A stretch of 64,000 nucleotides of DNA from Ignavibacteriota bacterium (lineage in GTDB: Bacteria; Bacteroidota; Ignavibacteria; UBA10030): NCBI GenBank assembly GCA_003170475.1, contig PMZI01000016.1, positions 9,165-73,164 on the forward strand. Reading direction: 5' to 3'. Under the pieces are notes generated by a model. That model saw only the letters and a list, made by a program, of their open reading frames with translations. It was not told the origin of the DNA and ran no database searches. Made by a program: the position numbers and the translations under genes. Below, piece by piece: positions 1,149-63,253 of this stretch (within the stretch, counting starts at the first letter, position 1; each line of letters starts with the position of its first letter).

Positions 1149-2951
1149 TCAGAGCGATCTTGATTCCAAGGTATGCGGTACAGAAGAAAGCCTCATCGGA
1201 AAATCGATGAGGCTTTTTGTTTTCACTCTCTCTGGCTCTGCTTTGCTCGAAAAGACAGCACCACCATGACGACCTGCTAAAAACATCTGCAGAACAATCG
1301 CCACAGCTAGGACCACCACACATCCAACCACGTTATACCATAGCCACGGGATTGATGTGAAGAAGTAGCAGCACAGAACAACAATCTCGCCTGCAAATGC
1401 CGCCCAGAACGTCGCCGTCCCTCCGATCCACTTCAGGTAGAACGCTATCAGGAAGATCGCCAGCATCGTACCGTAGAAGAGCGATCCGAGGATATTGACT
1501 GCCTCGATGAGCGACCCCAGCCTGCTCGCATACTGAGCGAAGAACACCGCATAGACTCCCCAACATGCCATCGCCAGGCGGGAGACCAGCAAATAGTGTT
1601 TCTCCTCCCCCTCTTTGTTGATGTGCCGCCGGTAGACGTCCACGACGGAACACGCAGCGAGAGCGCTGAGCTCACCCGACGTCGACGACATTGACGCCGC
1701 AAAAATGCAGGCAAAAAGGAGCCCAACAAGGCCCACGGGCAGGTACTTCATCACGAACGTCAGGAAGATGTAGTTCGTGTCATTCGTGTCTGCCTGAGGG
1801 TCGTTTGCCTGAAGGATTTTGATTCCCTCAGCCCGGATTTCCTCTGCCTGATGCGACGCGACAAGAAACTTTGACTGGGTGATCGCGATATTCCCCTCGT
1901 CGCTGAGTTTTCTTGCTTCCACATACTCGATGGCGGCCGCAGACTTCCGATCGAGGGCCTGGTTGTAGCGCTGCTCGGTCTCCAGGAATTGTCCTCCGTG
2001 CTCACTCTGCCGCACTTTCTCAACCTCCACAGGATTGAAGAAGATTGGCGGGCGCTCGAACTGAAAGAACGCAAAGACCATCGCACCGATCAACAAAATG
2101 AAAAACTGCATCGGGACTTTTGCCATCCCATTGAACAAAAGCCCCAGGCGGCTTTGCGTAACGGACGCACCAGTCAGGTAGCGCTGCACCTGGGACTGAT
2201 CCGTGCCGAAATACGCCAGGGCGACGAAGAGACCGCCCACAAGCCCTGACCAGAAATTATATCGACTGTGGAGATCGAACGAAAAATCAATGGCGTTGAG
2301 TCTCCCCATCCCGCCTGCAACGTGGAGCGCATCGATGAACCCGACATTCTTTGGCAGAAGAACGATCGTCATCACAAAGGCCACGACCATGCCTGCCATG
2401 ATGATGATCATCTGCTGAACGTCGGTCCAGTTCACCGCCTTCACCCCCCCCGACGTGGTGTACACGATGATGATGCCACCGATAAGCGTGGAAGTCAAAC
2501 GAATGTCCCAACCGAGCATCACCGAAAGAACGAGCGACGGAGCATAAATCGTTATTCCAACAGCCAGGCCGCGCTGTATCAGGAAAATAATACTGGTGAG
2601 CGTTCGCGTTTTGACGTCAAACCGATGCTCGAGGTATTCGTAGGCGGTGTAGACGCCAAGTTTATGATAGATAGGAACTGCGGTGATCGAGAGAATCACC
2701 ATCGCAAGAGGAAGGCCGAAATAGAATTGGACGAAGCGCATCCCGTCAACATATGCTTGACCGGGAGTCGAAGTGAACGTGACTGCGCTTGCCTGCGTTG
2801 CCATGATCGAAAGGGCAACCGCGAACCAGCGCATTTTCCGGTCGGCCAGGAGGTATCCTTTGAGATTCGAACTCCCTCTTCCCTTGTAGAGGCCGTAGAG
2901 AACGATGGAAAGAAGTGTACCACCGAGAACGATCCAGTCGGGCGTCTTCAT
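1149..2951 (-). CDS. sodium:solute symporter (SSS/SSF family) with a ~100-aa charged cytoplasmic insertion
   Basis: 600-aa polytopic protein, about 13 TM segments. The region 'ADRKMRWFAVALSIMATQASAVTFTSTPGQAYVDGMRFVQFYFGLPLAMVI' is typical of the SSF family. Residues about 300-400 are hydrophilic and coiled-coil-like (ETEQRYNQALDRKSAAAIEYVEARK...), which is an unusual insert. Confidence 0.7.
   Translation of the reverse strand: MKTPDWIVLGGTLLSIVLYGLYKGRGSSNLKGYLLADRKMRWFAVALSIMATQASAVTFTSTPGQAYVDGMRFVQFYFGLPLAMVILSITAVPIYHKLGVYTAYEYLEHRFDVKTRTLTSIIFLIQRGLAVGITIYAPSLVLSVMLGWDIRLTSTLIGGIIIVYTTSGGVKAVNWTDVQQMIIIMAGMVVAFVMTIVLLPKNVGFIDALHVAGGMGRLNAIDFSFDLHSRYNFWSGLVGGLFVALAYFGTDQSQVQRYLTGASVTQSRLGLLFNGMAKVPMQFFILLIGAMVFAFFQFERPPIFFNPVEVEKVRQSEHGGQFLETEQRYNQALDRKSAAAIEYVEARKLSDEGNIAITQSKFLVASHQAEEIRAEGIKILQANDPQADTNDTNYIFLTFVMKYLPVGLVGLLFACIFAASMSSTSGELSALAACSVVDVYRRHINKEGEEKHYLLVSRLAMACWGVYAVFFAQYASRLGSLIEAVNILGSLFYGTMLAIFLIAFYLKWIGGTATFWAAFAGEIVVLCCYFFTSIPWLWYNVVGCVVVLAVAIVLQMFLAGRHGGAVFSSKAEPERVKTKSLIDFPMRLSSVPHTLESRSL
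1187..1224 (+). terminator. rho-independent terminator (gcctcatcg-gaaaat-cgatgaggc + TTTTTGTTTT) after the DUF2911 gene; overlaps the last codons of the convergent symporter ORF
   Basis: Perfect 9-bp stem, 6-nt loop and a T-run seen directly at 1190-1224. Confidence 0.6.
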
Positions 2952-3070
2952 TCAAACGCCTTCGTAAAGAGGTAAAACAGAAGAATAAGGATCGCGAGTT
3001 CAGCAATCACAAACATATAAAGACGCTGCCATGATCCTAGAACAGGAGGAGGGCTTTCAGAAGCTTCCAT
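2948..3070 (-). CDS. 40-aa single-TM peptide translationally coupled (ATGA overlap) to the symporter gene; possible small symporter subunit
   Basis: MEASESPPPVLGSWQRLYMFVIAELAILILLFYLFTKAFE. Its stop TGA overlaps the symporter ATG at 2948-2951. The hydrophobic core is 20 aa. The upstream part of the ORF-track entry 2948..3337 is actually the tail of the frameshifted gene below. Confidence 0.3.
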   Translation of the reverse strand: MEASESPPPVLGSWQRLYMFVIAELAILILLFYLFTKAFE

Positions 3071-3105
3071 TGGCCGGGTTGAGATTCGAGTTTTGAGTTT
3101 TGAGT

Positions 3106-3587
3106 TCACTTGAACTTGATACCTCTGAGGCCCGCGCTTTTCAGGTAGTTCATCAATCCGCCGATCATTTTCCCGACTTCTGCAGCATGATTGTAAGCCG
3201 TGGTAAACACGTCCAGACTCAAATAGCCCTGATGGAGTCCGACGTAAAGATGACTTATGACTTCGGAAACCGATCCTTTCGCAATTGAAAGGAACTGGAT
3301 AAACTCCCTTGTTCCTCCTCTTCCGGCCCTTCGGCAATGTTCGCCATCACTGAAACTGCAGCACGCCGGAATTGGTCTCTCAGGGGAAAATCCCAGCTGA
3401 AATTGCCTTGCCGAGAAACACGACAGATTTCAGAAACCAACGACCGTGCCTTCGCCAAGCGTCGATTGCCTCCAGCTCCGTAAACGTGGGCAAGAAAGTC
3501 TCCAGCTTGTAGTCCGCGAAAAGGAATTCTCTTCTCAAAACTACAAACTTCTGAACTCAGAACCTCTGATCTACCTCGAACTGCCAA
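3106..3587 (-). pseudogene. four-helix-bundle protein (23S rRNA intervening-sequence protein family, TIGR02436-like) interrupted by a -1 frameshift near 3325-3335
   Basis: Frame a (ORF 3255..3587) gives ...FPLRDQFRRAAVSVMANIAEG then nonsense (PEEEEQGS...). Frame b, continuing from the same point, gives AGRGGTREFIQFLSIAKGSVSEVISHLYVGLHQGYLSLDVFTTAYNHAAEVGKMIGGLMNYLKSAGLRGIKFK*. Together these are the canonical '..RRAaVSIpaNIAEG.gR.s.kEFiqFL.IA.GS..E' family signature. The shift sits in a G/C run (gaagggccgg). The 5' end overlaps the PIG-L gene start by 17 nt. Confidence 0.55.
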
Positions 3588-6057
3588 GCGAAATCAAGTT
3601 CACAAACAGCCTGTACGCGCCGGGAACTCCCGCGGGAAGTTGCCGGAAGAACGCGTATCCCGTAAACACATACGTCCCCTTACCGTACGAAGCGACAAGC
3701 AATCCCCCCTCTCTCGATGGCTCACCGGGATCGTTGCTCGCAAGAATGGCAGTATAGTGCGAGTCCCACTTGTCAGCGAAGTAAAGTCCGCGTTCCTGAA
3801 CCCAGCCATCAAAATCTGCCTGAGTAATCTTGTTAGGAGTGTTCAGCACCGCATGAGTCGGGGCAAGAAATCGTACCGGCGCTTCCTCCACCGACACACG
3901 ATCACTCGTGATATTGAATGGATAGGGCCCGAGGTTTTCGGTCTCAGCTCTCCGAGCAGTCATGTACTGAACGATATACGTTCCCCCTTTTTCCACGAAC
4001 TCCATCAGCTTGCGCTGATTTGCTTTCAGGACAGGTCGAGTGTTGTAGGCCCTCACACCGGCGATGATGACGTCGTACTGGTTCAGTCCGCCGTTCTTGA
4101 GATCCTCGTCTGCGATCAACCCAACAGCGTAACCCAGCTGCCTCAGTACCGTAGGAATGTCGTCACCGGCCCCCATGATGTAGCCGATTCGGCGATCAGT
4201 GATCTTCAAGTCGAGACGGAGCAGGCGTCCCTCCGCCTCCGGAAAAACCGTCTGAGGAGGAATATGCGGATAGCGTATCGTGAGCATGTCCTGGTGCATA
4301 CGGACATCCCCGACAGTCGCCTCAGCACCGAACGACCCCGATGCTGACCCATTTGTGGGCTCAACCTGGAAAACGAGCGACAAGTTTTCATCCTTCTGTT
4401 TTAGATCAAACGGATAGGACGGAGGAGTCACCTTCCACCCCTCGGGAGTTCGAAGCGCGACTGTTCCGGAAGTCATGGAAATGTTATTGCGAAGGTTCAC
4501 CTGTATTGACCGCTGCTTGTGGTCCGGAAATACGTATGTTTTCTCCGGCAAATTCAAAGTGACAGGCGGAATGATCGCAAACGGCCGGTACTGTTCGCCT
4601 TCAACGGGATCAACACCTCGGAAACGCACCGGGACCTCAAACGTCATCGCTCCGTCATTCGAGACGAGCGTCATGCTCATCGTCAGCGCGGGGACATTTT
4701 CCGGCTGACCGACGAGTTCCTGACGAGGGATTCTGTATGCGCCGAGTTCCGATGGTTCGACAAGCCAATACGGTTGAGAATACTGCAAATCCTTTGGCAG
4801 TTTCACAGCAAATGTGAATTGAACCTGCTGATTGCTCTGCAACTGTGCAGTCATGGTCGTATCAAACCGACCGAACGGGCCCACAATCTTCGTAAGCCGA
4901 AACGGATACGATGATCGATTCAGCGCTGATCCGGTGATCTTGATTTCTCCGCCAGGCACCCCAAAGTTGTCGGAAGAAAGAGCGTCAAGCCACAGTCCGC
5001 CGCACAGCTTGATGACTTCAGCAAGTTCACGCTTCTTGACCTGGATCCATGGATCTCTTTTCAACTTCTCAATTTCCGCATACGCATGCAGAAGTGCGGG
5101 AAGAGATTTCGCAGGATTCTCGTCATCAAACGTACGGTAAGCCTCCTCCAGGAGTCTTGCGACGCCTTCGGCTCCGGCGACGCGTGACCATGTCGTGCTG
5201 ACTCCATCGAAGAGATCAGCACTTGCCATATCGCCGGCGATATGTTGAAAGTAGTTGACGAACTCACCTCTGTTCTGACCCGCTCCAAACCCCTGACTCT
5301 TGTGCATGCTTCGACTGCGGCCGGCAATTTCTGTGAACGACTCTCCCAACACCGGGCTATACACTCCGAGATCGATGGTCAGCGAACTGTCCGGTTTTGC
5401 CGGTCGGTCGCTTTGCTGAAAACGAAACACGTTCCACAGAAGTCTTTTCGGTTTCCAGACCTGAACGAATTTCAGCTGTTCAGGAAAGCGTAGCGGATCG
5501 CCGGCGGCGGTGTACGCTTCCTCGGCGAGAGCGGCAGAACTCGTGTGATTCCCATGGCCACCCAGCGTGGGTGTGAATCTCGTGACAACAACATCCGGAC
5601 GGTACGAGCGGATAACCCACACCACGTCCGAGAGTGTTCTTTCCTTCCCCCAAATTCTCATCGTCTCATCGAGTGTTTTCGAATAGCCGAAGTCGATTGC
5701 TCGCGTGAAGTATTGCTCAGCGCCATCGATACGGCGCGCGGCAAGGAGTTCCTGAGTTCGTATGATTCCCATCAGGTCGCCCTGTTCGGCACCGAGGAGA
5801 TTTTGCCCTCCCTCACCCCGCGTCACCGCCAGGTAGGCAGAGCGCATCAATCGACCCTTCGCCATATAAGCAAGGAATGCCGTGTTCTCGTCGTCCGGAT
5901 GAGCGGCGATGAAGAGCACCGAGCCAAGCACGTTGAGCTTCTTGATCGCCAGCCGGAGTTCTGCCGCATCAAGTGATCTGGGAGATTGGGGTTGTGCAAT
6001 AAGGGAAATCGTGAGTGAAGAGATCAGCAGAACAAGAGCAAGTAGCTTGCGCGCCAT
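3571..6057 (-). CDS. secreted PIG-L/LmbE-family deacetylase fused to a large C-terminal ThuA/class-I-glutamine-amidotransferase-like domain (828 aa)
   Basis: Signal peptide MARKLLALVLLISSLTISLIAQ. The 'VLFIAAHPDDENTAFLAYMAKG' HPDDE zinc-deacetylase motif follows. The C-terminal domain is about 550 aa. Confidence 0.6.
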   Translation of the reverse strand: MARKLLALVLLISSLTISLIAQPQSPRSLDAAELRLAIKKLNVLGSVLFIAAHPDDENTAFLAYMAKGRLMRSAYLAVTRGEGGQNLLGAEQGDLMGIIRTQELLAARRIDGAEQYFTRAIDFGYSKTLDETMRIWGKERTLSDVVWVIRSYRPDVVVTRFTPTLGGHGNHTSSAALAEEAYTAAGDPLRFPEQLKFVQVWKPKRLLWNVFRFQQSDRPAKPDSSLTIDLGVYSPVLGESFTEIAGRSRSMHKSQGFGAGQNRGEFVNYFQHIAGDMASADLFDGVSTTWSRVAGAEGVARLLEEAYRTFDDENPAKSLPALLHAYAEIEKLKRDPWIQVKKRELAEVIKLCGGLWLDALSSDNFGVPGGEIKITGSALNRSSYPFRLTKIVGPFGRFDTTMTAQLQSNQQVQFTFAVKLPKDLQYSQPYWLVEPSELGAYRIPRQELVGQPENVPALTMSMTLVSNDGAMTFEVPVRFRGVDPVEGEQYRPFAIIPPVTLNLPEKTYVFPDHKQRSIQVNLRNNISMTSGTVALRTPEGWKVTPPSYPFDLKQKDENLSLVFQVEPTNGSASGSFGAEATVGDVRMHQDMLTIRYPHIPPQTVFPEAEGRLLRLDLKITDRRIGYIMGAGDDIPTVLRQLGYAVGLIADEDLKNGGLNQYDVIIAGVRAYNTRPVLKANQRKLMEFVEKGGTYIVQYMTARRAETENLGPYPFNITSDRVSVEEAPVRFLAPTHAVLNTPNKITQADFDGWVQERGLYFADKWDSHYTAILASNDPGEPSREGGLLVASYGKGTYVFTGYAFFRQLPAGVPGAYRLFVNLISLGSSR

Positions 6058-6307
6058 CGCGGATCCTTTATGCCAATGGGAGGTTGGGAAGAGCAGAATC
6101 AGAGTGATTTCCGGCCTTTTCTGCGCGGAAATATACCATTCCCACCCAGAAGCCGCAAGGAGAAAGGGACCAGCAGCGAAAAGATCACCCGGTTCGGCAG
6201 CCTTTGATAAACAAAGGTCGTCTCATGAATGTTCCTGCGAACGCCACATCGAGCGGATCCACCGGCTTGCTCATCACCGTCTGCGAACCGTCGCACCTTT
6301 TCGATCA

Positions 6308-6349
6308 GTGTAGCGTTCTGCAATCTCCAGACATCTAACTGTTGAGCAG
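6308..6349 (+). promoter_or_regulatory. copy A of a conserved composite element GTGTAGCG-N16-CATCTAACTgTTGAGCAG, ~110 nt upstream of the 6461 gene
   Basis: Near-identical to 27658-27699 (8/8 + 18/19 identities, identical 16-nt spacer length; an extra CCTTT(T)CG block lies just upstream in both). See findings. Confidence 0.45.
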
Positions 6350-6460
6350 TGTGGACATCAACCGGTGATGTCACCCACCACATCGTTACCTCCGGCACGC
6401 CGCTCATGTTTACGACTCTGTAACCATCTGGCAATCACCAGGCATTCCAGGGAGGAATCC

Positions 6461-7783
6461 ATGGCAGCGTTCAAGTTCCGCGTACCGTCGTTATTCCAGC
6501 TTGTCGTTCTCTCCATTGTGTGCTCCTTTCCTCTGTTCTCACAGGCTCCTGCGGACACGGTAGACATCATGCAGAAATCCGCCGTGAAGATTTACGTCGA
6601 CTGCAGCCTCTGCGATCAGGACTATTTCCGGACAGAGCTGACATATGTCAATTTTGTTCGCGACCGGAAGCAGGCACACGTGCATATTATGATCACGCAG
6701 ATGTACACCGGGAGCGGCGGAACAGAGTACACAATGACATTCATCGGACAACTGGAATTTGAGGGAGTTAACGACACGCTGAAGTACAATGCCAATAAGA
6801 CCGACACTCAGGATATGACGCGGAAAGGGATGCTGAAAGTTCTGAAGACGGGACTCGTCCGCTACGTCATCCACACACCACTCGGCGAGTTCTTCAACAT
6901 TACGTACAACAAACCAACGGCTGCGACCAAAGTTGCAGACCGGTGGGACTACTGGGTCATCAATGCGAACCTCAGCAGCTGGTTCAACGGCGAATCTCAA
7001 TATAAATCGTCGCAACTCTGGGGAGGGCTGACTGCCAGCCGGGTAACGGACGACTGGAAATTCCGGTTTTCAGTGAACTTCAGCTACAACGACAACGCGT
7101 ACGATGTTCAAACGGATGACACAACGACGGTGACCAGCAGATCGATCAGCCGAAGCCAGTGGTTCAACGGCTTCATTGTCAAGAGCATCAACGACCATTG
7201 GTCCGTCGGACTCTTCACCTACCTGAGTTCTGCGACCTACAGCAATATCGATTTCTCTTCCCGCGTGGAACCCGGAATCGAATACAATATTTTCCCGTTC
7301 AGCGAATCAACCCATCGTCAGCTTCGCATCGGCTACCAGATCGGCGTCGGTTCGAGACGTTATATCGACACTACCATCTACTTCAAGAAATCAGAGGTCC
7401 TCTATTCCCATTCACTTTCCGCCACTCTCTCTCTCCAGCAGCCGTGGGGATCAACATCGATCACACTTGCCGAATCACAGTTCCTTCACGACTTCTCAAA
7501 AAATAGTTTCAATGCATCCGGGAGCATGTCGATCCGAGTGTTCGAAGGCCTTTCTGTCACCCTCTATGGCGGATACACCGCAGTCCATGACCAGCTTTCC
7601 CTCGCCAAGAGTTCGCTGACAGAAGCGGAGATTTATCAGCAGCGACGTGAGTTGGCGAAAAGCTATTCCTACTACGGTTCGTTCGGTTTCAGCTACTCAA
7701 TTGGCTCGATTTACAACAATATTGTCAATTCCAGATTTGGCAATCAGGGCGGTGGCGGAACCACCATAATCACGAGCGATTGA
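6461..7783 (+). CDS. secreted hypothetical protein, probable outer-membrane beta-barrel (alternating amphipathic beta-strand pattern, aromatic-rich)
   Basis: Strong RBS GGGAGG 8 nt before the ATG at 6461 (MAAFKFRVPSLFQLVVLSIVCSFPLFSQA signal peptide). The ORF-track start at 6365 is an N-terminal over-extension. A terminator lies downstream. Confidence 0.5.
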   Translation: MAAFKFRVPSLFQLVVLSIVCSFPLFSQAPADTVDIMQKSAVKIYVDCSLCDQDYFRTELTYVNFVRDRKQAHVHIMITQMYTGSGGTEYTMTFIGQLEFEGVNDTLKYNANKTDTQDMTRKGMLKVLKTGLVRYVIHTPLGEFFNITYNKPTAATKVADRWDYWVINANLSSWFNGESQYKSSQLWGGLTASRVTDDWKFRFSVNFSYNDNAYDVQTDDTTTVTSRSISRSQWFNGFIVKSINDHWSVGLFTYLSSATYSNIDFSSRVEPGIEYNIFPFSESTHRQLRIGYQIGVGSRRYIDTTIYFKKSEVLYSHSLSATLSLQQPWGSTSITLAESQFLHDFSKNSFNASGSMSIRVFEGLSVTLYGGYTAVHDQLSLAKSSLTEAEIYQQRRELAKSYSYYGSFGFSYSIGSIYNNIVNSRFGNQGGGGTTIITSD

Positions 7784-7808
7784 GCATTGAGACTATCCAG
7801 ACATTCCT

Positions 7809-7838
7809 GAGCCGCCCCCCCGTGGCGGCTTTTTTTTG
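7809..7838 (+). terminator. rho-independent terminator (gccgcc-ccccgtg-ggcggc + T9)
   Basis: GC stem 7811-7816/7824-7829 followed by TTTTTTTTT. Confidence 0.7.
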
Positions 7839-7970
7839 TTCTTCCGATATGTGCGTTCCGCCTTCACTTTTTTGAATTCATTTCCTTATCTTAGACAGCG
7901 CTTCAAGGCGCCTTGCACACGGGCTCTTTCTCGAGCCACTTCCCAACAGGACATCAAAACATTTCTTGCC

Positions 7971-8474
7971 ATGAGAGTATCGATCACATTCGTCTTCCAT
8001 CTGCTGAGCATCGGGACATTAATGACCACCCTCGTCGCCGGCTTCATCCTCGACAGAAAGATCAGGAGAGAACCCGACATTCATTTGAAGATCTACACAG
8101 CGGGACTCTCAAAGTCCATCGGGCTTCTGTCGCCTGTCGCGGCGATACTCCTCTTACTTACCGGCATTGCGAACATTCACAATCGCTTCTTGGGATATCC
8201 TTCTGAGTGGTATTCCGAAGGCTGGCTTGTTGCGAAAATCATTTTGTACGCCGTGATGGTTTTCAACGGAATGTTTTACGGCCCCGGTCTGATGCGCGGC
8301 CGCCTGAAAGTCCTTCGATCGCAGGCCGAGCAATCCGCTCCCACAAATGCCGACAGTCAGATCCGATCCTACAACACTCAGATCACACTCTTCTACGCAG
8401 TCCAGATCATGCTCTTTCTTTTGATTGTTTACATTTCAGTGTTTGGCACCGCAAAACACCCTGGAGCAATTTAG
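7971..8474 (+). CDS. small integral membrane protein (4 predicted TM helices), unknown function
   Basis: Start chosen at MRVSITFVFHLLSIG..., because the ORF-track start at 7836 lies inside the upstream terminator T-run. Hydrophobic segments alternate with short loops. Confidence 0.4.
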   Translation: MRVSITFVFHLLSIGTLMTTLVAGFILDRKIRREPDIHLKIYTAGLSKSIGLLSPVAAILLLLTGIANIHNRFLGYPSEWYSEGWLVAKIILYAVMVFNGMFYGPGLMRGRLKVLRSQAEQSAPTNADSQIRSYNTQITLFYAVQIMLFLLIVYISVFGTAKHPGAI

Positions 8475-8486
8475 AAAGTCCGTGTT

Positions 8487-9731
8487 ATGAAGCTCGCCTA
8501 TGCTTTTTTTGTTCTCTGTATCGTTCTGACCCTTGCCGCGTGTCAGCAGGCACCGCCTCCCCAGCAGGCAATGTGGAAAGGCACTCTCGAACTCCCCGGT
8601 CAGAAACAGCTTCCCTTCCTCGTCTTTCTCGACCTCAAACAACCAGCGCCATCAGGATATTTCCTGAACGGCTCCGAGCAAACTCCGATTCCTGAGGTTG
8701 AGTTGCACGGAGACTCGTTGACCTTTGTCTTTTCAGAGTATGGGGCTGCTATGCGAGGAATCTGGAAACGTGGGAAGCTCGCGGGAGAATTCCTTCGCTT
8801 CCGAAAAGACACGATGGTCAACAAGTTTGAGGCGGTGCCGGTGACTTCAACCGAACAAACTCCGCAGTCAAAGATGAGTACCGAAGTCCCCCTCGTGGGA
8901 AAATTCCAGGCGTACTTCAAGCAGAAAGAAGGGATCGACAGCTCGTCGCAGGCAACATTCTGGGCTCATGGAGATTCGGTGTATGGAACCATCGTGGAGT
9001 CATCCGGGGACATCGGACTGATGGCCGGAAAGCAAACCGGCAACTCGGTTCTCCTCACGCGATTCACAGGTTGGCAAGGTCAGATGATTGAGCTCACGCG
9101 CGTACAGAATGCGTGGAGCGGAACCTTGTACTATCGCATCCCGCCACCCGTCTCTTTCACTCTTGAGCCCCGTGCGACACTGGTTGAAGAGCTCGCTGAG
9201 GCAAACAGACCTTCGCTGAAAAATGTCCGAAAACCCTTCGCGTTCTCCGGAACGACGGTCATGGGTGACACGGTGAACAATCTTTCTCCGCAGTTCAAGG
9301 GAAAGGTTCTCCTTCTCGACATCATGGGAACATGGTGCCACAATTGCATGGACGCTGCGCCATTACTCCAGAAGCTCTCTTCGGAGTTTGGGAGCCAGGG
9401 GCTCGAAGTCGTTGGTCTTTCCTTCGAACTGAGTGACGATCCCACCACAGCACGGAGAAACCTGCTACTCTTCGAAGAACGCTACGGGATTACATTCCCG
9501 GTGTTGTTCTGCGGCTCAACAAGCCCCGCGAACATCGAAGCCAGAGTGAAATCGCAGATCAACAATTTCCCCGGATATCCAACGACACTTTTCATTGATC
9601 GCAACGGCTCGGTCTCTACGATCCATGGCGGCTTCAATGGACCGGGTACAGGCGAGTATTTCCAGGCCCAGATCAACCGTTACTATGATCTTGTAAGGAC
9701 CTTGCTCAAAAGTAACAAGTCGAAACGCTGA
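8487..9731 (+). CDS. lipoprotein with C-terminal TlpA/ResA-like thioredoxin-fold thiol:disulfide oxidoreductase domain
   Basis: Lipobox MKLAYAFFVLCIVLTLAAC. The C-terminal 'GKVLLLDIMGTWCHNCMDAAPLL' carries a WCxxC active site, followed by the '...GYPTTLFIDRNGSV' thioredoxin-fold end. Confidence 0.65.
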   Translation: MKLAYAFFVLCIVLTLAACQQAPPPQQAMWKGTLELPGQKQLPFLVFLDLKQPAPSGYFLNGSEQTPIPEVELHGDSLTFVFSEYGAAMRGIWKRGKLAGEFLRFRKDTMVNKFEAVPVTSTEQTPQSKMSTEVPLVGKFQAYFKQKEGIDSSSQATFWAHGDSVYGTIVESSGDIGLMAGKQTGNSVLLTRFTGWQGQMIELTRVQNAWSGTLYYRIPPPVSFTLEPRATLVEELAEANRPSLKNVRKPFAFSGTTVMGDTVNNLSPQFKGKVLLLDIMGTWCHNCMDAAPLLQKLSSEFGSQGLEVVGLSFELSDDPTTARRNLLLFEERYGITFPVLFCGSTSPANIEARVKSQINNFPGYPTTLFIDRNGSVSTIHGGFNGPGTGEYFQAQINRYYDLVRTLLKSNKSKR

Positions 9732-9806
9732 CGTTTCTCCGGCCCTGACGAAGGACGGACAGCGACCCAGATTCTTCACCCTATTGCAACCTTCTCAAAG
9801 GAAAGC

Positions 9807-10145
9807 GTGAACTCTATGGACCATTCGCTCGTCACCACTAATTTCCAACTTGACGGATTCAAGATCGTGAAGAACATGGGAGTCGTACGAGGTATCGTTG
9901 TGCGTTCCCGTTCAGTATTCGGAAACATTGGAGCAGGACTCCAGATATTGTTCGGAGGGAATATCACGCTTTACACCGAGCTCTGTGAGGCAACGCGAAG
10001 GGACGCTTTTGAACTGATGATCCAGCATGCCCAGGCCATCGGTGCGAATTCAATTATCGGATTCCGCTACGACGCCACAGAGATTATGGGGGGTGTGACC
10101 GAGGTCCTCGCATACGGAACCGCATGCGTCGTGGAAAAACTGTGA
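9807..10145 (+). CDS. YbjQ/UPF0145 (DUF74) family protein
   Basis: 112 aa. 'FKIVKNMGVVRGIVVRSRSVFGNIGAGLQILFGGNITLYTELCEATRRDAFELMIQHAQAIGANSIIGFRYDATEI' is the family pattern. Start is GTG at 9807 or ATG at 9816. Confidence 0.65.
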   Translation: MNSMDHSLVTTNFQLDGFKIVKNMGVVRGIVVRSRSVFGNIGAGLQILFGGNITLYTELCEATRRDAFELMIQHAQAIGANSIIGFRYDATEIMGGVTEVLAYGTACVVEKL

Positions 10146-58899: not shown

Positions 58900-60021
58900 T
58901 CAGATCAGCAGCTCGTAGATGCGGTGACGTTTGGTGATTTTCCCGTTCATCGCTTCGGCGGATTTGTTCATCCTGACGTTGTCTTCGAGAACCCAACTTG
59001 CTTCGCCATAGGCGTAGCCAAGCTTGCGTGCCCGGACCGCAGTTTCATAGAACAATACACCTGCTGCACCGCTATTGAGATATTCAGGAAGAACGCCAAG
59101 CACAATAACGCGCACCAAGTTAATTTCTTTCTTACGCAAATACAACTGCAACAGTCCCGGCAAGAGGCGACCTTTCCTGTTGTACCAGAGTGCCACGTTG
59201 ATGTCCGGCAGAGAGAGGGCGAATCCGATCGTCTTTCCCTTGCTTTCAGCGAAGAGAACGAGTTCAGGAACGATAACCGGCTTCAAGTCTTCTGCCAACG
59301 CGTCCATTTCCGCATCCGTCATCGGAACCGCTCCCCAGTTCTTCGCCCACGCGGCATTGTAGACTTGTTTCACGAGCGCCACATCACTATCGAAGTTCTT
59401 CATGTTCACCGTGCGAATGGTGAGGCTGTTCCTTTCTTTCACGAGTGCGTTTGCTCTGTTGAACCGATCGGAGTAGACCGTCTCTTGCGAAAGATTGTAT
59501 GAGTACAGGTCTTTGGCCTTCTTGAATCCGTACCCTTCGACAAGCTTTACGTAATATTCCGGATTATAGGGCATCAGGACCGTCGGGCGTTCGGTGAATC
59601 CTTCGACCAGCAATCCGTACTCGTCATTCACAGAAGGATTCGCGGGGCCGCGGAACGACGTCATCCCCTTCGCCTTCACGTAAGCCTTGGCCTTTTCAAA
59701 AAGAACATCGGCTACCTGTTGATCGTTGATGCACTCGAAGAAGCCGAAGAAGCCGGTTTTCTCACTATGCTCTTTGTTATGATTGTGATTGACGATTGCC
59801 GCAATGCGACCGACCATGACACCATCTCGCTTCGCAATGTAGAACTCGGCATCCGAGTGCGCATAGAACGGGTTCTTCTTCTTGTCCATGAGCTTTCTGC
59901 GATCCATCAGAAGGGGCGGAACCCAGTAGGGGTTCCCTTCGTAGATCTTCCAGAGAAACTTGATGAATTGATCACGGTCAGCGTTTGTGACAACCGGCTG
60001 AATGACGACTTCACTCATAAG
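58900..60021 (-). CDS. ~373-aa GNAT-fold-like acyl-CoA N-acyltransferase; candidate bacterial ceramide synthase (bCerS-like) by synteny with spt
   Basis: Start at MSEVVIQPVV.... Family-typical 'FIKFLWKIYEGNPYWVPPLLMDRRKLMDKKKNPFYAHSDAEFYIAKRDGVMVGRIAAIVNH'. Sits 37 nt downstream of, and co-oriented with, the Spt-like gene. Its exact enzymatic function is not provable from sequence alone. Confidence 0.4.
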   Translation of the reverse strand, partial: LMSEVVIQPVVTNADRDQFIKFLWKIYEGNPYWVPPLLMDRRKLMDKKKNPFYAHSDAEFYIAKRDGVMVGRIAAIVNHNHNKEHSEKTGFFGFFECINDQQVADVLFEKAKAYVKAKGMTSFRGPANPSVNDEYGLLVEGFTERPTVLMPYNPEYYVKLVEGYGFKKAKDLYSYNLSQETVYSDRFNRANALVKERNSLTIRTVNMKNFDSDVALVKQVYNAAWAKNWGAVPMTDAEMDALAEDLKPVIVPELVLFAESKGKTIGFALSLPDINVALWYNRKGRLLPGLLQLYLRKKEINLVRVIVLGVLPEYLNSGAAGVLFYETAVRARKLGYAYGEASWVLEDNVRMNKSAEAMNGKITKRHRIYELLI

Positions 60022-60138
60022 CACACCTGACGAAATATGATTGATTGGAATGGTTACTGCTGGAACAAAAAAGCCGCCACGTATACCGCGGCGGCTTCTC
60101 AATTCTTACGATGCATTCCGAAAAGCCATGGGCTGAAC

Positions 60139-61353
60139 TCAGCTGATGACACCAAATTTCTTGCCCACATCAGAGAACACGCTCAAGATCTTATCGAGAT
60201 GGACATCCTCGTGAGTCGCCATATAGCTCGTTCGGAGCATCTCCAGTCCGGGAGGAACGCCGGGCCGGATAAATGCGTTGACGAATACCCCGCCCTCAAA
60301 GAGCGATTTCCACATCATCAGGACTTTTTCTGTGTCCCCAATAATGACAGGAACCACAGCAGAATCATGTTCACTGACCTTGTAGCCCATCCCTTTCAAT
60401 CCCTGTCGCATCTTGCGAGCATTGCGCATGAGCTTCTCGATCCGCCACGGTTCTGTTTCAAGCACATCCAGGGCGGCCAACGCAGCTGCGACGGATGACG
60501 GAGTCGGGCTGGCGCTGAATATCAAGGCAGGTGCATGATGCTTCAAATAGTTGATCACGGACCGATCACCAACGACAAACCCGCCAAGAGACGCAAAGGT
60601 CTTGCTGAACGTTCCCATGGTCATGTCGACCTGATTCTCCAATCCGTAATGGCTCGCTGTTCCCCGCCCCCCCTTACCGATGACGCCGATAGCATGAGCA
60701 TCATCAATCAAAATACGAGCGTTATATTTTTTTGCGACAGCGACCATGCTGGGCAGATCGACAATTTCTCCCGAGGTACTGAAGACTCCGTCCGAGACGA
60801 TCAACTTTGGTGCATCCAACGGCAATTTGGAAATCATCGTCTCCATGTGCTTCATGTCGTTGTGTTTGTACCGAACCACCGTCTGAGCATCTTTGTCGAC
60901 AAAGGCTCCAGCTCCATTGGCGATAAGATTGCCTGCTACGATACAAGCGTGGTTGTCTTTGTCAGAAACGACATAGGATCCCGGCTCCACCAGGGTCGGA
61001 ATGATCCCTTGTGCCGTCTGAAACCCGGTGCTGAAAAGGAGGCAGTCCTCCTTCCCCATAAACTTTGCCAGTCGGGCCTCAAGCTCCACGTGCAGATCAA
61101 GCGTGCCAGTCAGGTATCGTGAGCCGGAACACCCGGTGCCGTACTTGTGCACCGCTTTGATGGCTGCTTCTTTCACCTTGGGATGAGTAGTCAGGCCAAG
61201 GTAGTTGTTCGAGCCAGCCATCACGATTTTCCTGCCCTCGATCTGGACGACGGGTCCTTCACTTTCTTGTATAGCATGAAAGTACGGATAGCATCCTAAA
61301 GCTTTTGTGTCGTCAGCGCGTGTAAAGTTCTTGCATTTATCAAAGAGATCCAC
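60139..61353 (-). CDS. spt: alpha-oxoamine synthase, serine palmitoyltransferase (Spt)-like
   Basis: Bacteroidota-Spt-like motifs: 'GCYPYF', '[26 protein letters not shown]', 'LLFSTGF', 'YKHNDM', PLP-lysine '[16 protein letters not shown]', and C-terminal '[20 protein letters not shown]...MATH'. It is closer to Spt than to Kbl/BioF by these landmarks. Confidence 0.7.
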
Positions 61354-61481
61354 ACTTACCTCAGTCTAATGGAGAGTAAAAGAAGAGAAATGGGTGCGAC
61401 TTTGCTAATCCAAACTTTTTTGAATATACTTCAATAAGCAACGAAAGTCAACGAAACCGTCCAATTCAAGGAGATTCGCCG

Positions 61482-62465
61482 ATTCCAACTGCACTCGTCA
61501 CTGGCGGAACAGGATTTGTCGGAAGCCATACGATGGAGCTCTTGCTTCAGCGTGGATTTCAGGTTCGATGCCTGGTGCGTCGAAGCCGCCCGGACCTCGG
61601 CTGGGCCGAAGGACTGCCCGTTGAAATAGTACGCGGAAGCTACTATGACGTTGACTCACTCCGAGAAGCCGTCGGAACTGTCGACTATATCTTCCACATC
61701 GCCGGTATAACGAAAGCGCGGAAACCGCGCGAGTACAACGATGGCAACGTCCTCTCGACTCGCAATCTCCTTGAGGCCGCTGCAACAAATTCTCATTTGA
61801 AGAAATTCTGTCTCATCAGCAGTCTCACGGCCGCGGGTCCCAGCCTCGATGGCAAACTGTTGGATGAGAATTCACCGTGCAAGCCAATCACAACTTACGG
61901 TGCCACAAAACTCGCGGCCGAGACGATCTGCCAGCTCCACTCCAAACAAATCCCCATCGTCATCCTGCGACCTCCCGCTGTGTATGGCCCCAGAGATCAT
62001 GACGGTCTGCAGATTTTCCAGTGGGCCAGCAAGGGCTTCATTCCTGGAATGGGGGGAAGAGAAAAAATGGTCAGCCTGATTTACGGACCTGAGCTCGCAC
62101 GGGCCATCGTCGAGGCGACAGTCTCGGAGAGGACGACGGGAGAAACTTATTTCGTTGCTGACCCGGAGGACTACTCGTTCTGCGATTCCATGGCGCAGGT
62201 GGCAGGCATGGCTGGAAAACGTGCCCGGACCCTCGTCATCCCGAAGTGGCTCCTCTTCGGCATTGCGGGAATCTCCGAAGCCGTCTCTCTCTTCCAATCG
62301 AAACCCCCCGTGCTGAACATCGAGAAAGTCCGAGATCTCGTCCAGAAATATTGGGTGTGCAGCCCAAAAAAGTTGGAGGATCACATAGGATTCCGAACTC
62401 AGGTCTCGATCGAGGATGGCCTGAAGCGCACATTCGAGTGGTACAAGGAGCATGGCTGGCTCTAG
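61482..62465 (+). CDS. NAD-dependent epimerase/dehydratase-family (extended SDR) reductase; candidate ceramide/3-ketodihydrosphingosine reductase (CerR-like)
   Basis: The Rossmann motif 'ALVTGGTGFVGSHTMELLL' begins upstream of the first ATG (61533). The in-frame open stretch back to the TAA at 61377 has no ATG/GTG/TTG, and ATT at 61482 follows AAGGAG. 'YGATKLAAE' is the SDR YxxxK. Confidence 0.6.
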   Translation: MPTALVTGGTGFVGSHTMELLLQRGFQVRCLVRRSRPDLGWAEGLPVEIVRGSYYDVDSLREAVGTVDYIFHIAGITKARKPREYNDGNVLSTRNLLEAAATNSHLKKFCLISSLTAAGPSLDGKLLDENSPCKPITTYGATKLAAETICQLHSKQIPIVILRPPAVYGPRDHDGLQIFQWASKGFIPGMGGREKMVSLIYGPELARAIVEATVSERTTGETYFVADPEDYSFCDSMAQVAGMAGKRARTLVIPKWLLFGIAGISEAVSLFQSKPPVLNIEKVRDLVQKYWVCSPKKLEDHIGFRTQVSIEDGLKRTFEWYKEHGWL

Positions 62466-62503
62466 CCATCATCTCTTCGACACATCGACAATCATCTTTG
62501 AGC

Positions 62504-62878
62504 ATGCAAAACTACTTTTTGGTATTTGTTGGCGGAGGAATAGGAGCGGCCGCCCGTTATTGGCTGTCGGGCTGGGTACCGGCCAAGATCCAAAGCGACT
62601 TGCCCGTTGGAACGCTCACAGTCAACATCCTCGGATGCTTTCTCATCGGTTTCCTCATGTCCGCGTTCGAGGAACGATTTCTGGCTCAACCTTCTATGCG
62701 CGTCTTCCTCACGATCGGCATCCTTGGAGGATTCACAACCTTCTCCACCTTCAGCTTCGAGACCGTAGCATTGATGAGAGATGGGGAAGTTCTCTTCGCG
62801 ACGGCTAACATTGTCGTGAGCATCCTCACGTGCATCGGGGGAACGGCAATCGGAATGTACGTCGGCAGGCTCATCTGA
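62504..62878 (+). CDS. crcB: fluoride ion channel CrcB/Fluc
   Basis: 124 aa. 'MQNYFLVFVGGGIGAAARYWLSG' N-terminus. Four TM segments. Starts 38 nt after the reductase stop. The ORF-track 5' extension is rejected. Confidence 0.85.
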   Translation: MQNYFLVFVGGGIGAAARYWLSGWVPAKIQSDLPVGTLTVNILGCFLIGFLMSAFEERFLAQPSMRVFLTIGILGGFTTFSTFSFETVALMRDGEVLFATANIVVSILTCIGGTAIGMYVGRLI

Positions 62879-62896
62879 TACTTTGGAGAAGATCCT

Positions 62897-63253
62897 ATGA
62901 AACTGGCAGGTGACGGAAAACTTCTGAGGATTTTCCTTGGAGAGTCTGATATTCTGGATCACAAACCCCTCTATGAGATCATCGTCAGGGCCGCTCGCAA
63001 AGAGGGCCTCGCGGGAGCGACGGTCTTGAGAGGAGTAGAAGGATATGGTGCGGACAGCCGCATTATCCACACGGCGAAGATACTTCGTCTCTCCGAGGAT
63101 CTTCCCATCGTAATCGAACTCGTCGACACGGAGGAGAACATCAGGAGGTTCCTCCCTACCGTCGATGGACTATTTGATCAGGCAGGATGCGGCGGCATGG
63201 TGACAATCGAAAAGGCTGAAGTGATCCGCTACAAGGCTGGAAAACAACAATAG
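62897..63253 (+). CDS. DUF190 (PII-like, CrcB-associated) protein
   Basis: 'LLRIFLGESDILDHKPLYEIIVRAARKEGLAGATVLRGVEGYG' matches the DUF190 family that habitually follows crcB. Confidence 0.7.
   Translation: MKLAGDGKLLRIFLGESDILDHKPLYEIIVRAARKEGLAGATVLRGVEGYGADSRIIHTAKILRLSEDLPIVIELVDTEENIRRFLPTVDGLFDQAGCGGMVTIEKAEVIRYKAGKQQ

Follow-up and report, generated by a model that had tools for sequence, protein, structure and literature searches.

The bacterial ceramide pathway of Caulobacter crescentus involves Spt (CC_1162/CCNA_01220), the N-acyltransferase bCerS (CC_1154/CCNA_01212), and the reductase CerR (CC_1164/CCNA_01222), the last of which is an NDUFA9/epimerase-like extended SDR and was reported to be periplasmic and inner-membrane-associated (PMC11087976). 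The same pathway is found in Sphingomonas and in E. coli B, where the counterparts are Spt ECD_02854, yghO/ECD_02850, and ECD_02852 (‘epi’). It was reported that yghO/ECD_02850 is a homologue of CC_1154, the N-acyltransferase of ceramide synthesis, that ECD_02852 is the counterpart of CC_1164, and that the Spt encoded in the yghO cluster of E. coli B has enzymatic activity (PMC9386255). In Bacteroidia (Bacteroides, Porphyromonas), the three genes were reported to be dispersed, and in B. thetaiotaomicron a different, classical-SDR 3-ketosphinganine reductase, BT_0972, was described. In published surveys, the ceramide pathway has been inferred for about 40 phyla, with ‘Ignavibacter’ among the taxa named.

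The stretch of DNA analysed here (the window) comprises 64,000 nucleotides from an Ignavibacteriota bacterium. Its positions 58900–62465 contain three adjoining ORFs, located where the initial annotation had placed them, which encode a tandem-GNAT protein, an alpha-oxoamine synthase (AOS), and a divergent extended-SDR reductase (Table 1). Similar to Caulobacter, E. coli B, and Sphingomonas, the genes of these three families lie within one locus; however, the gene order differs and the reductase gene is divergent. Both gene order and orientation, including the divergent reductase gene, are identical in Aureispira anguillae (Saprospiria), whose proteins are 59% (AOS), 40% (GNAT), and 34% (reductase, E 4e-61) identical to those of the window, although the A. 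anguillae locus, unlike that of the window, is carried on a 122-kb plasmid. Ceramide is present in large amounts in Aureispira marina, a congener of the compared A. anguillae strain. Unlike in Caulobacter, no dedicated AcpR or other dedicated ACP, no AasR, LptF/G paralogues, or desaturase were found in the window; it also contains no condensation-domain protein or LTA-synthase-like gene, and an Rfam scan of its whole length gave 0 matches.

Table 1. Features of the three-gene locus, with positions counted from the first letter of the window
Feature	Position	Strand	Details
bCerS-like N-acyltransferase, tandem-repeat GNAT, YghO/CC_1154 family	58900..60018	-	372 aa, ATG start at 60018
Terminator-like hairpin, then T-run	60067..60096	-	10-bp stem AGCCGCCGCG/CGTGGCGGCT, 5-nt loop; Spt-GNAT spacer
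Spt-like AOS	60139..61353	-	404 aa, GTG start, Schiff-base Lys251; Pfam, NCBIfam, and PDB comparisons
Divergent intergenic region, Spt-like gene/reductase gene	61354..61481	.	sigma-70-like promoter matches back to back, and Shine-Dalgarno sequence
CerR-like NAD(P)H-dependent reductase, extended SDR, epimerase/dehydratase family	61482..62465	+	327 aa from ATT 61482 (most likely start)

The triad is likely to constitute the bacterial ceramide-backbone pathway in a minimal, ACP-independent form. This interpretation, proposed in the initial annotation, is supported by the ranking of the AOS among Spt and related enzymes and by homology of the two other proteins to the YghO/CC_1154 family and to the CerR counterpart, respectively, together with the conserved catalytic motifs and the linkage of the genes in different phyla. 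Judging from these genes, the uncultured Ignavibacteria-like host very probably makes sphingolipids. In the proposed mechanism, the Spt-like PLP enzyme would condense L-serine with a long-chain acyl thioester, yielding 3-ketodihydrosphingosine (3-KDS). The thioester donor would probably be acyl-CoA or housekeeping acyl-ACP, since the window encodes neither a dedicated ACP nor an acyl-ACP synthetase. The long-chain base would then be N-acylated from acyl-CoA by the tandem-GNAT protein, a bCerS/YghO homologue, and the CerR-homologous extended SDR would use NAD(P)H to reduce the 3-keto group, resulting in dihydroceramide; the order of N-acylation and 3-keto reduction is disputed in the literature.

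The Spt-like synthase and its probable amino acid substrate

The AOS matches Pfam Aminotran_1_2 (E 1e-46), and among the NCBIfam models it is ranked best by SerpalmtaseCFB (CFB-Spt, NF047600; 472 bits), followed by bioF (357 bits) and Kbl (337 bits). Because the score of 472 bits falls under the cut-off of 640 trusted for the CFB Spt equivalog NF047600, the protein, apparently a divergent one, is best called Spt-like. A score below this threshold was also obtained for the Aureispira AOS (487 bits). The cut-offs of the Kbl/BioF models are not reached by the window AOS either (NF005394, 337 versus 460; TIGR01822, 279 versus 493; TIGR00858, 357 versus 426). In the PDB, the best match is Sphingobacterium multivorum Spt (SmSPT, 367 bits), then Sphingomonas Spt (269 bits), with lower scores for Kbl (~230 bits), two cysteate acyltransferases (221 and 203 bits), BioF (171 bits), and CqsA (131 bits). 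Both the model and the PDB rankings bear out the initial placement of the AOS nearer to Spt than to Kbl/BioF. Its identity to the Spts of the Caulobacter/E. coli B/Sphingomonas type is 35–37%.

SmSPT (PDB 3A2B/8GUH), the closest characterised Spt, is ACP-independent, as the window system appears to be, and shares its active site with the AOS. The catalytic set of a fold-type I PLP enzyme is present (Lys251, His135, Asp217, and His220), and 11 of the 12 SmSPT active-site residues are identical (Asn, Gly, Ser, His, Ser, Asp, Ala, His, Thr, Ser, and Lys); the position of SmSPT Met271 is occupied by Ile, likewise in the Spts of E. coli B and Sphingomonas. The residues by which SmSPT contacts the serine carboxylate and hydroxyl, directly or via water (Asn52, Gly80, Ser81, His138, Ser243, and Lys244), are all retained.

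The same AOS fold and PLP chemistry are found in SulA/CapB of Alistipes and Capnocytophaga, and sulfonolipids, which arise by analogous chemistry, occur in Bacteroidota. The initial annotation left room for sulfonolipids (capnine) as the product. In such a capnine/sulfobacin pathway, the AOS would be a SulA/CapB cysteate acyltransferase, reduction of 3-ketocapnine would fall to the SDR, and N-acylation of capnine to the GNAT protein. The cysteate acyltransferases of known structure can be recognised as homologues of the AOS, but their scores of 203–221 bits are far below the 367 bits obtained for Spt. In addition, a published discriminator distinguishes Lys in SulA (cysteate/sulfonolipid) from Ala in Spt at position 281 of SulA, which lies 30 residues past the Schiff-base Lys. 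The residue at this position is Ala in the window AOS and in 56/56 linked orthologues; sulfonolipid synthesis is disfavoured by this Spt-type residue and is considered very improbable.

The second debatable issue is whether serine is the amino acid used. If the AOS took alanine, glycine, or another amino acid, then the same chemistry would result in a 1-deoxy-ceramide or another N-acyl amino-alcohol lipid. This is consistent with the AOS score, which stays under the cut-off trusted for the curated CFB Spt model, and with a 10-residue insertion shared by the window AOS and its closest relative. Bacterial Spts were reported to use Ala and Gly at low efficiency (PMC10196870), and according to a speculation by Ding et al., other amino acids may be accepted by Spt-like enzymes. 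However, the serine-contact residues of SmSPT are not only kept but also invariant in 55–56 of the 56 linked orthologues, and the 59% identical Aureispira orthologue belongs to a genus in which ordinary ceramides are abundant. We regard a substrate other than serine as improbable, and we infer that the AOS condenses serine with a long-chain acyl thioester to 3-KDS.

The bCerS-like N-acyltransferase, the CerR-like reductase, and its probable ATT start

The GNAT protein of the window has a tandem-GNAT fold, as expected for a GNAT-fold acyl-CoA N-acyltransferase. It aligns end-to-end with YghO of E. coli (375 aa, 32.5% identical; E 9e-60, calculated for a database size of 1e9) and along the full length with the GNAT of the Sphingomonas spt locus (E 1e-65), which is at odds with a grouping among unrelated acetyltransferases, an outcome that would have counted against the initial annotation. 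It is also a full-length homologue of the Bacteroides finegoldii GNAT (28.5% identity, E 4e-45) and of the GNATs encoded in Streptomyces, Rubrobacter, and Aureispira clusters. No match was obtained for this protein in Pfam or NCBIfam and no significant one in a PDB sequence search; the missing family match carries no information, as neither YghO nor the Sphingomonas GNAT matches any Pfam/NCBIfam model. The protein would N-acylate 3-KDS or sphinganine with long-chain acyl-CoA.

The reductase matches Pfam Epimerase (E 6e-22) and, in agreement with its initial description as a CerR homologue, E. coli ‘epi’ (ECD_02852; 29.4% identity over 316 aa, E 3e-36), the counterpart of CC_1164; it is 30% identical to the Sphingomonas reductase (E 5e-23). 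Its best PDB match reaches only 82 bits and is weaker than the cluster-encoded homologues. The best NCBIfam model is HpnA (hopanoid-associated) with a sub-threshold score, a pattern also obtained for the anchored CerR homologues. The window gene encodes TGxxGFxG (T7, G8, G11, F12, and G14), Ser113/114, and Tyr139-x3-Lys143, which do not vary among six cluster-linked reductases. It should be noted that the link of the window proteins to the characterised Caulobacter enzymes runs via the homologues that PMC9386255 names for E. coli and Sphingomonas, to which their identity is only about 30%.

The start of the reductase gene was initially set at ATG 61533. The Rossmann motif ALVTGGTGFVGSH, however, is located in frame upstream of this codon and would be deleted by such a start; it is translated only from the non-canonical ATT 61482, 51 nt upstream. 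Since ATG 61533 drops the motif and no in-frame ATG, GTG, or TTG precedes it, translation most likely starts at ATT 61482. If ATT were not used, then the reductase would be left without its NAD(P)-binding motif. A Shine-Dalgarno sequence, AAGGAG, can be read directly at 61468–61473. The protein would begin directly with the Rossmann motif, and therefore there is no space for an N-terminal signal peptide; for Caulobacter CerR, a periplasmic location was reported.

Gene linkage across genomes

The linkage of the three genes was analysed in 55 genome loci from many phyla, each flanked by 3 kb or more of sequence on either side. The genome scan was conducted with a closer GNAT alignment, as the first, very diverse one contained no sufficiently conserved block. 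The AOS gene adjoins the GNAT gene in 44 of the 55 loci (80%), and all three genes occur together in 39 (71%), in at least five gene orders. The triad recurs in at least 10 phyla, and the phyla covered include Gemmatimonadota, Zixibacteria, Acidobacteriota, Calditrichota, Verrucomicrobiota, Actinomycetota, and Bdellovibrionota. The flanking ilvE, used as a control, is adjacent in close relatives only. Synteny in close relatives, where the whole neighbourhood is conserved, was left out as evidence. The adjacency of the triad is far beyond chance because it recurs across phyla in shuffled orders, whereas that of ilvE is restricted to close relatives. The GNAT family is not obligatorily linked, since about 20–30% of its loci have no adjacent AOS gene. 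The idea of the unlinked GNATs as a distinct paralogous clade was rejected, since they are scattered among the linked ones in a neighbour-joining tree. The GNAT of B. finegoldii stands alone, in line with the dispersed genes reported for Bacteroidia, while in the window, Ignavibacteria, Melioribacteraceae, and Saprospiria (Aureispira) the genes are clustered.

These data also bear on whether the three genes are merely chance neighbours with housekeeping functions, i.e., a Kbl/BioF, a threonine dehydrogenase or sugar epimerase, and an ordinary GNAT acetyltransferase. AOS enzymes and extended SDRs belong to large, promiscuous families, and Kbl/Tdh pairs are common. The best curated match of the reductase is HpnA, below its threshold, and the GNAT protein belongs to no curated family; both observations are uninformative, since the anchored CerR homologues and YghO behave alike. 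The Kbl and BioF models score under Spt, with every score below its own cut-off, and the Kbl/Tdh reading was rejected on the AOS model and PDB scores. Together with the recurrence of the triad, but not of its flanking genes, in at least 10 phyla, this leaves an assembly of unrelated housekeeping genes with hardly any likelihood.

Predicted expression of the locus and its significance

The spt and GNAT genes are separated by a 120-nt spacer, the fold of which has a predicted energy of −42.7 kcal/mol (z −4.06; 0 of 200 shuffles equally stable). It contains a terminator-like hairpin, and because of it, co-transcription of the two genes is not assured. The hairpin was not among the calls of a simple scanner; in 13 or more related loci, this spacer likewise contains an analogous hairpin with a T-run, of unrelated sequence. 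In the divergent intergenic region, sigma-70-like sites match the consensus at 10/12 positions on the minus strand (61451..61423) and 9/12 on the plus strand (61402..61430), a count not above shuffle expectation and hence weak evidence of promoters. The conserved terminator-like hairpin and the apparent ATT start suggest that synthesis of the three proteins does not follow a fixed 1:1:1 ratio. One of the mechanisms that might be considered, although as an unlikely one, is that in this Ignavibacteria-like lineage the hairpin throttles read-through from spt to bCerS and that an AUU/AUC start, which would be used in at least three related genomes, keeps CerR scarce, and/or that the divergent Spt-like enzyme, with its lineage-specific 10-residue insertion, forms a non-canonical sphingoid base.

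The initial annotation regarded sphingolipid production as a notable trait for a host not belonging to Bacteroides, Porphyromonas, the sphingomonads, or Caulobacter, and the present host indeed belongs to none of these groups; however, the genomic potential of ‘Ignavibacter’ and of about 40 phyla had already been published, so that the presence of the pathway in the host group is predicted by the literature and little is new. The minor new points are the probable ATT start of the reductase and the conserved spt-GNAT hairpin. The understanding of the ceramide pathway itself is unchanged. The analysis provides a well-supported annotation for genes that pipelines call ‘hypothetical protein’, ‘aminotransferase class I/II’, and ‘epimerase’, and indicates that clustering of all three genes is common among members of the FCB group other than Bacteroidia, unlike the dispersed arrangement described for Bacteroides and Porphyromonas. 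It also extends the range of organisms in which ceramide synthesis is expected by one uncultured, Ignavibacteria-like lineage; this is relevant to the assignment of environmental sphingolipid biomarkers, with glycosyl-ceramides having been correlated with Ignavibacteriales (PMC10667739).

The candidate ceramide triad and its host

The window carries, at 58900-62465, the N-acyltransferase, Spt-like alpha-oxoamine synthase (AOS) and reductase genes that the initial annotation had described, in the same order and orientation (see the table). According to Pfam, its neighbours are ilvE and the genes for a cNMP-binding protein and Usp at one end, and crcB and a DUF190 gene at the other. Reference proteins match nothing in the window but the triad; a dedicated ACP, an acyl-ACP synthetase, LptF/G paralogues and a desaturase are all absent from it. 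The host belongs to the FCB group and is an uncultured, Ignavibacteria-like bacterium. The GNAT protein has named relatives in 'Ignavibacteriales', 'Ignavibacteria' and 'Bacteroidota' MAGs, and an ENA metagenome contig carries a 99%-identical copy in the same neighbourhood.

In the mechanical GNAT frame the first codon is a TTG, 28 codons ahead of the conserved ATG; since this extension overlaps a terminator-like hairpin and is missing in homologues, it is almost certainly not translated. The crcB gene (fluoride exporter) and the DUF190 gene directly follow the reductase, and the true crcB start should lie near 62500, because the Pfam match begins only at residue 92 of the mechanical frame. 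No fluoride riboswitch or other Rfam family reached gathering score in the 64-kb window.

Features of the triad locus and of related or reference loci (L-numbers; L001 and L002 are the closest relatives of the window)
Feature	Coordinates	Strand	Remarks
AOS	60139-61353	-	Pfam Aminotran_1_2, E 1e-46
GNAT-like protein, 372 aa	58900-60018	- (same as AOS)	120 nt downstream of AOS
GNAT mechanical ORF	58900-60102	-	TTG start
Epimerase/dehydratase-family SDR	about 61482 to 62465	divergent from AOS	Pfam Epimerase, E 6e-22
Reductase start region	AAGGAG 61468-61473, ATT 61482	+	window sequence
Reductase start region, L001	about 8530-8600	-	
Reductase start region, L002	about 1492-1520	-	
spt-GNAT spacer	60019-60138		MFE -42.7 kcal/mol, z-score -4.06
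Terminator-like hairpin	60067-60096	-	GC-rich hairpin and T-run; missed by a simple terminator scanner
Analogous AOS-GNAT spacer hairpins	L001, L002, L003, L005, L006, L014, L015, L017, L023, L024, L026, L027, L036		
AOS insertion, residues 146-157	about 60883-60918	-	
crcB and DUF190 gene	62466-63253		
E. coli L084 (PN43 record NZ_MG591698.1)	2343-10122		LptF/LptG paralogues beside spt, acpR, epi
S. parapaucimobilis L086	799-10523		LptF/LptG paralogues beside spt, acpR, epi
Streptomyces L083	10042-11289		condensation-domain protein
Rubrobacter L087	8221-10290		LTA-synthase-family protein

Homology of the three proteins

The synthase is Spt-like, as judged from its sequence. Among NCBIfam models, that for the CFB-group serine palmitoyltransferase fits best (472 bits, below its trusted cut-off of 640), followed by bioF (357) and Kbl (337). 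Among solved structures, Sphingobacterium multivorum Spt (SmSPT) leads at 367 bits, with Sphingomonas Spt at 269, Kbl at about 230, cysteate acyltransferases at 221 and 203, and BioF at 171, so that the assignment to Spt rather than Kbl/BioF is upheld. When the description of the SmSPT active site (PMC10196870) was combined with alignment to solved structures, Asn52, Gly80, Ser81, His138, Ser185, Asp210, Ala212, His213, Thr241, Ser243 and Lys244 were found to be kept; Met271, a main-chain contact, is replaced by Ile, a change also present in the Spts of E. coli B and Sphingomonas. It had also been proposed that the same enzyme set could make sulfonolipids. The cysteate acyltransferase of that pathway, SulA, carries Lys281 where Spt has Ala (PMC9304779), and Ala281 is present in the window AOS and in 56/56 orthologues adjoining a GNAT gene, which argues against this alternative. 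Only the window AOS and that of its closest relative, L002, have an insertion of about 10 residues relative to S. multivorum Spt; the remaining orthologues are of the short form.

The GNAT-like protein is assigned by homology to the bCerS/YghO family, which comprises 8,566 clusters at 50% identity. In Caulobacter, CC_1154 is the N-acyltransferase (CerS/bCerS) and CC_1164 the reductase (CerR). According to the Figure 9 legend of PMC9386255, 'aca' denotes CC_1154, yghO/ECD_02850 and S. paucimobilis DRN02_007910, and 'epi' denotes CC_1164 and ECD_02852; the same source reports activity of the E. coli B Spt. A tblastn search with the window GNAT against annotated plasmid and chromid records returned full-length homologues in Sphingomonas parapaucimobilis, E. 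coli (yghO), Streptomyces, Rubrobacter, Aureispira anguillae and Bacteroides finegoldii. BLASTP comparisons (database size 1e9 residues) gave 32.5% identity over 375 aa to YghO (E 9e-60), 32.5% to the Sphingomonas protein (E 1e-65), 39-40% to those of Rubrobacter, Aureispira and Streptomyces (E 2e-85 to 8e-97) and 28.5% to that of Bacteroides finegoldii (E 4e-45), and the seven proteins, aligned end to end, share 25 invariant residues. The full-length homology to YghO, listed with CC_1154, and to the GNAT of the Sphingomonas spt locus supports the earlier reading of a bCerS-type N-acyltransferase. Some family representatives, P0121 (784 aa), P0202 (780 aa), P0247 (648 aa) and P0139 (529 aa), are of roughly double length; two stretches of P0121 match the query, pointing to a tandem duplication, and in P0202 and P0247 the GNAT module forms the C-terminal end of a longer polypeptide.

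The reductase is CerR-like on the same kind of evidence, as had been predicted. It shares 29.4% identity over 316 aa with the E. coli epi protein, the CC_1164 counterpart (BLASTP, E 3e-36), 30% with the Sphingomonas and 34% with the Aureispira protein, and these matches to cluster reductases exceed the best PDB match (82 bits). The SDR motifs TGxxGFxG, Ser113/114 and Tyr139-x3-Lys143 are invariant in an alignment of six cluster-linked reductases. Its best curated match is a sub-threshold one to HpnA. As anchored CerR homologues behave likewise and YghO has no curated model, missing curated matches for the GNAT and the reductase carry no weight. The first canonical start, ATG 61533, lies downstream of the Rossmann motif and would leave it untranslated, and no in-frame ATG, GTG or TTG was found between the preceding stop codon and this motif in the window, L001 or L002; in most of the other orthologues an ATG precedes it by 3-10 codons. 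Because a GGAGG-type Shine-Dalgarno sequence precedes an in-frame ATT or ATC by 4-8 nt in all three, non-canonical initiation at an Ile codon (AUU/AUC) is likely, being the simplest explanation.

Linkage and transcription of the genes

When a single genome of each species was scanned, 80 loci were found to hold a gene of the GNAT family; they come from Ignavibacteria, Melioribacteraceae, Kapaibacteria, Gemmatimonadota, Zixibacteria, Calditrichota, Acidobacteriota, Verrucomicrobiota, Anaerolineae, Bdellovibrionota, Caldisericaceae and others. An AOS lies within 3.5 kb of the GNAT at 56 of them and the full triad is present at 46; where at least 3 kb was available on both sides, the counts are 44/55 and 39/55. 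The linked loci show at least five gene orders, with a median AOS-GNAT gap of 74 nt, and the control gene ilvE is a neighbour only in close relatives. Adjacency of the triad thus exceeds chance. Unlinked GNATs might be thought to form a separate paralogue clade, but a neighbour-joining tree intersperses them with linked ones and so points to dissolution of the cluster in individual lineages. The solitary GNAT of B. finegoldii fits published statements that ceramide genes are dispersed in sphingolipid-producing Bacteroidota.

In the spt-GNAT spacer a T-run follows a strong, GC-rich hairpin of 10 bp. At least 13 related loci have terminator-like hairpins in this spacer as well, though unrelated in sequence. 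This points to partial termination or transcript processing as a conserved feature, so that the two genes may not form a plain single-transcript operon. At L010 the spacer holds a run of direct repeats of about 18 nt, GGGCCAGACAGGTTAGAC. The L037 AOS has in-frame stop codons and is thus a pseudogene or an assembly error.

Reference loci and the proposed pathway

In S. parapaucimobilis the gene order is NAD(P)H-binding protein, ACP, aminotransferase, ATP-binding protein, LptF, LptG, desaturase and N-acetyltransferase (the GNAT homologue), and E. coli yghO neighbours genes for a fatty acyl-AMP ligase, an epimerase-family protein, an ACP, an aminotransferase and LptG/LptF paralogues. The L084 record is labelled plasmid, yet holds the chromosomal glc-yghO region. 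The LptF/LptG paralogues at both loci fit a recent preprint, according to which sphingolipid export in Caulobacter depends on LPS-transport homologues. In Streptomyces and Rubrobacter, the GNAT homologue is central in tight AOS-GNAT-reductase operons, followed by a condensation-domain and an LTA-synthase-family protein, respectively, which may act in tailoring of the lipid or on its head group. Aureispira anguillae carries its GNAT homologue in a triad laid out as in the window, and large amounts of ceramide are reported for its congener A. marina, which gives the pathway an anchor at the level of the organism.

Neither the pathway nor any of the three families is new. Spt-like genes were found in 1,271 MAGs from 38 phyla, many accompanied by bCerS and CerR homologues, bringing potential sphingolipid-producing phyla to 40 (Ding et al., PMC11334938). 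Genetic potential in 'Ignavibacter' is mentioned in PMC10667739, citing Stankeviciute 2022, and monoglycosyl-ceramides were correlated with Ignavibacteriales ASVs (PMC10667739). The host does lie outside the documented groups, the condition that had been set for a notable trait; however, the novelty attached to this does not hold in view of these reports. In the proposed pathway, Spt would condense serine with an acyl thioester to 3-ketodihydrosphingosine, the tandem GNAT would N-acylate this base, and the SDR would reduce the 3-keto group, although published accounts disagree on which of the last two comes first. Substrates, product and expression are inferred throughout, and a bacterial ceramide-backbone pathway, as first proposed, is the best-supported reading of the triad.
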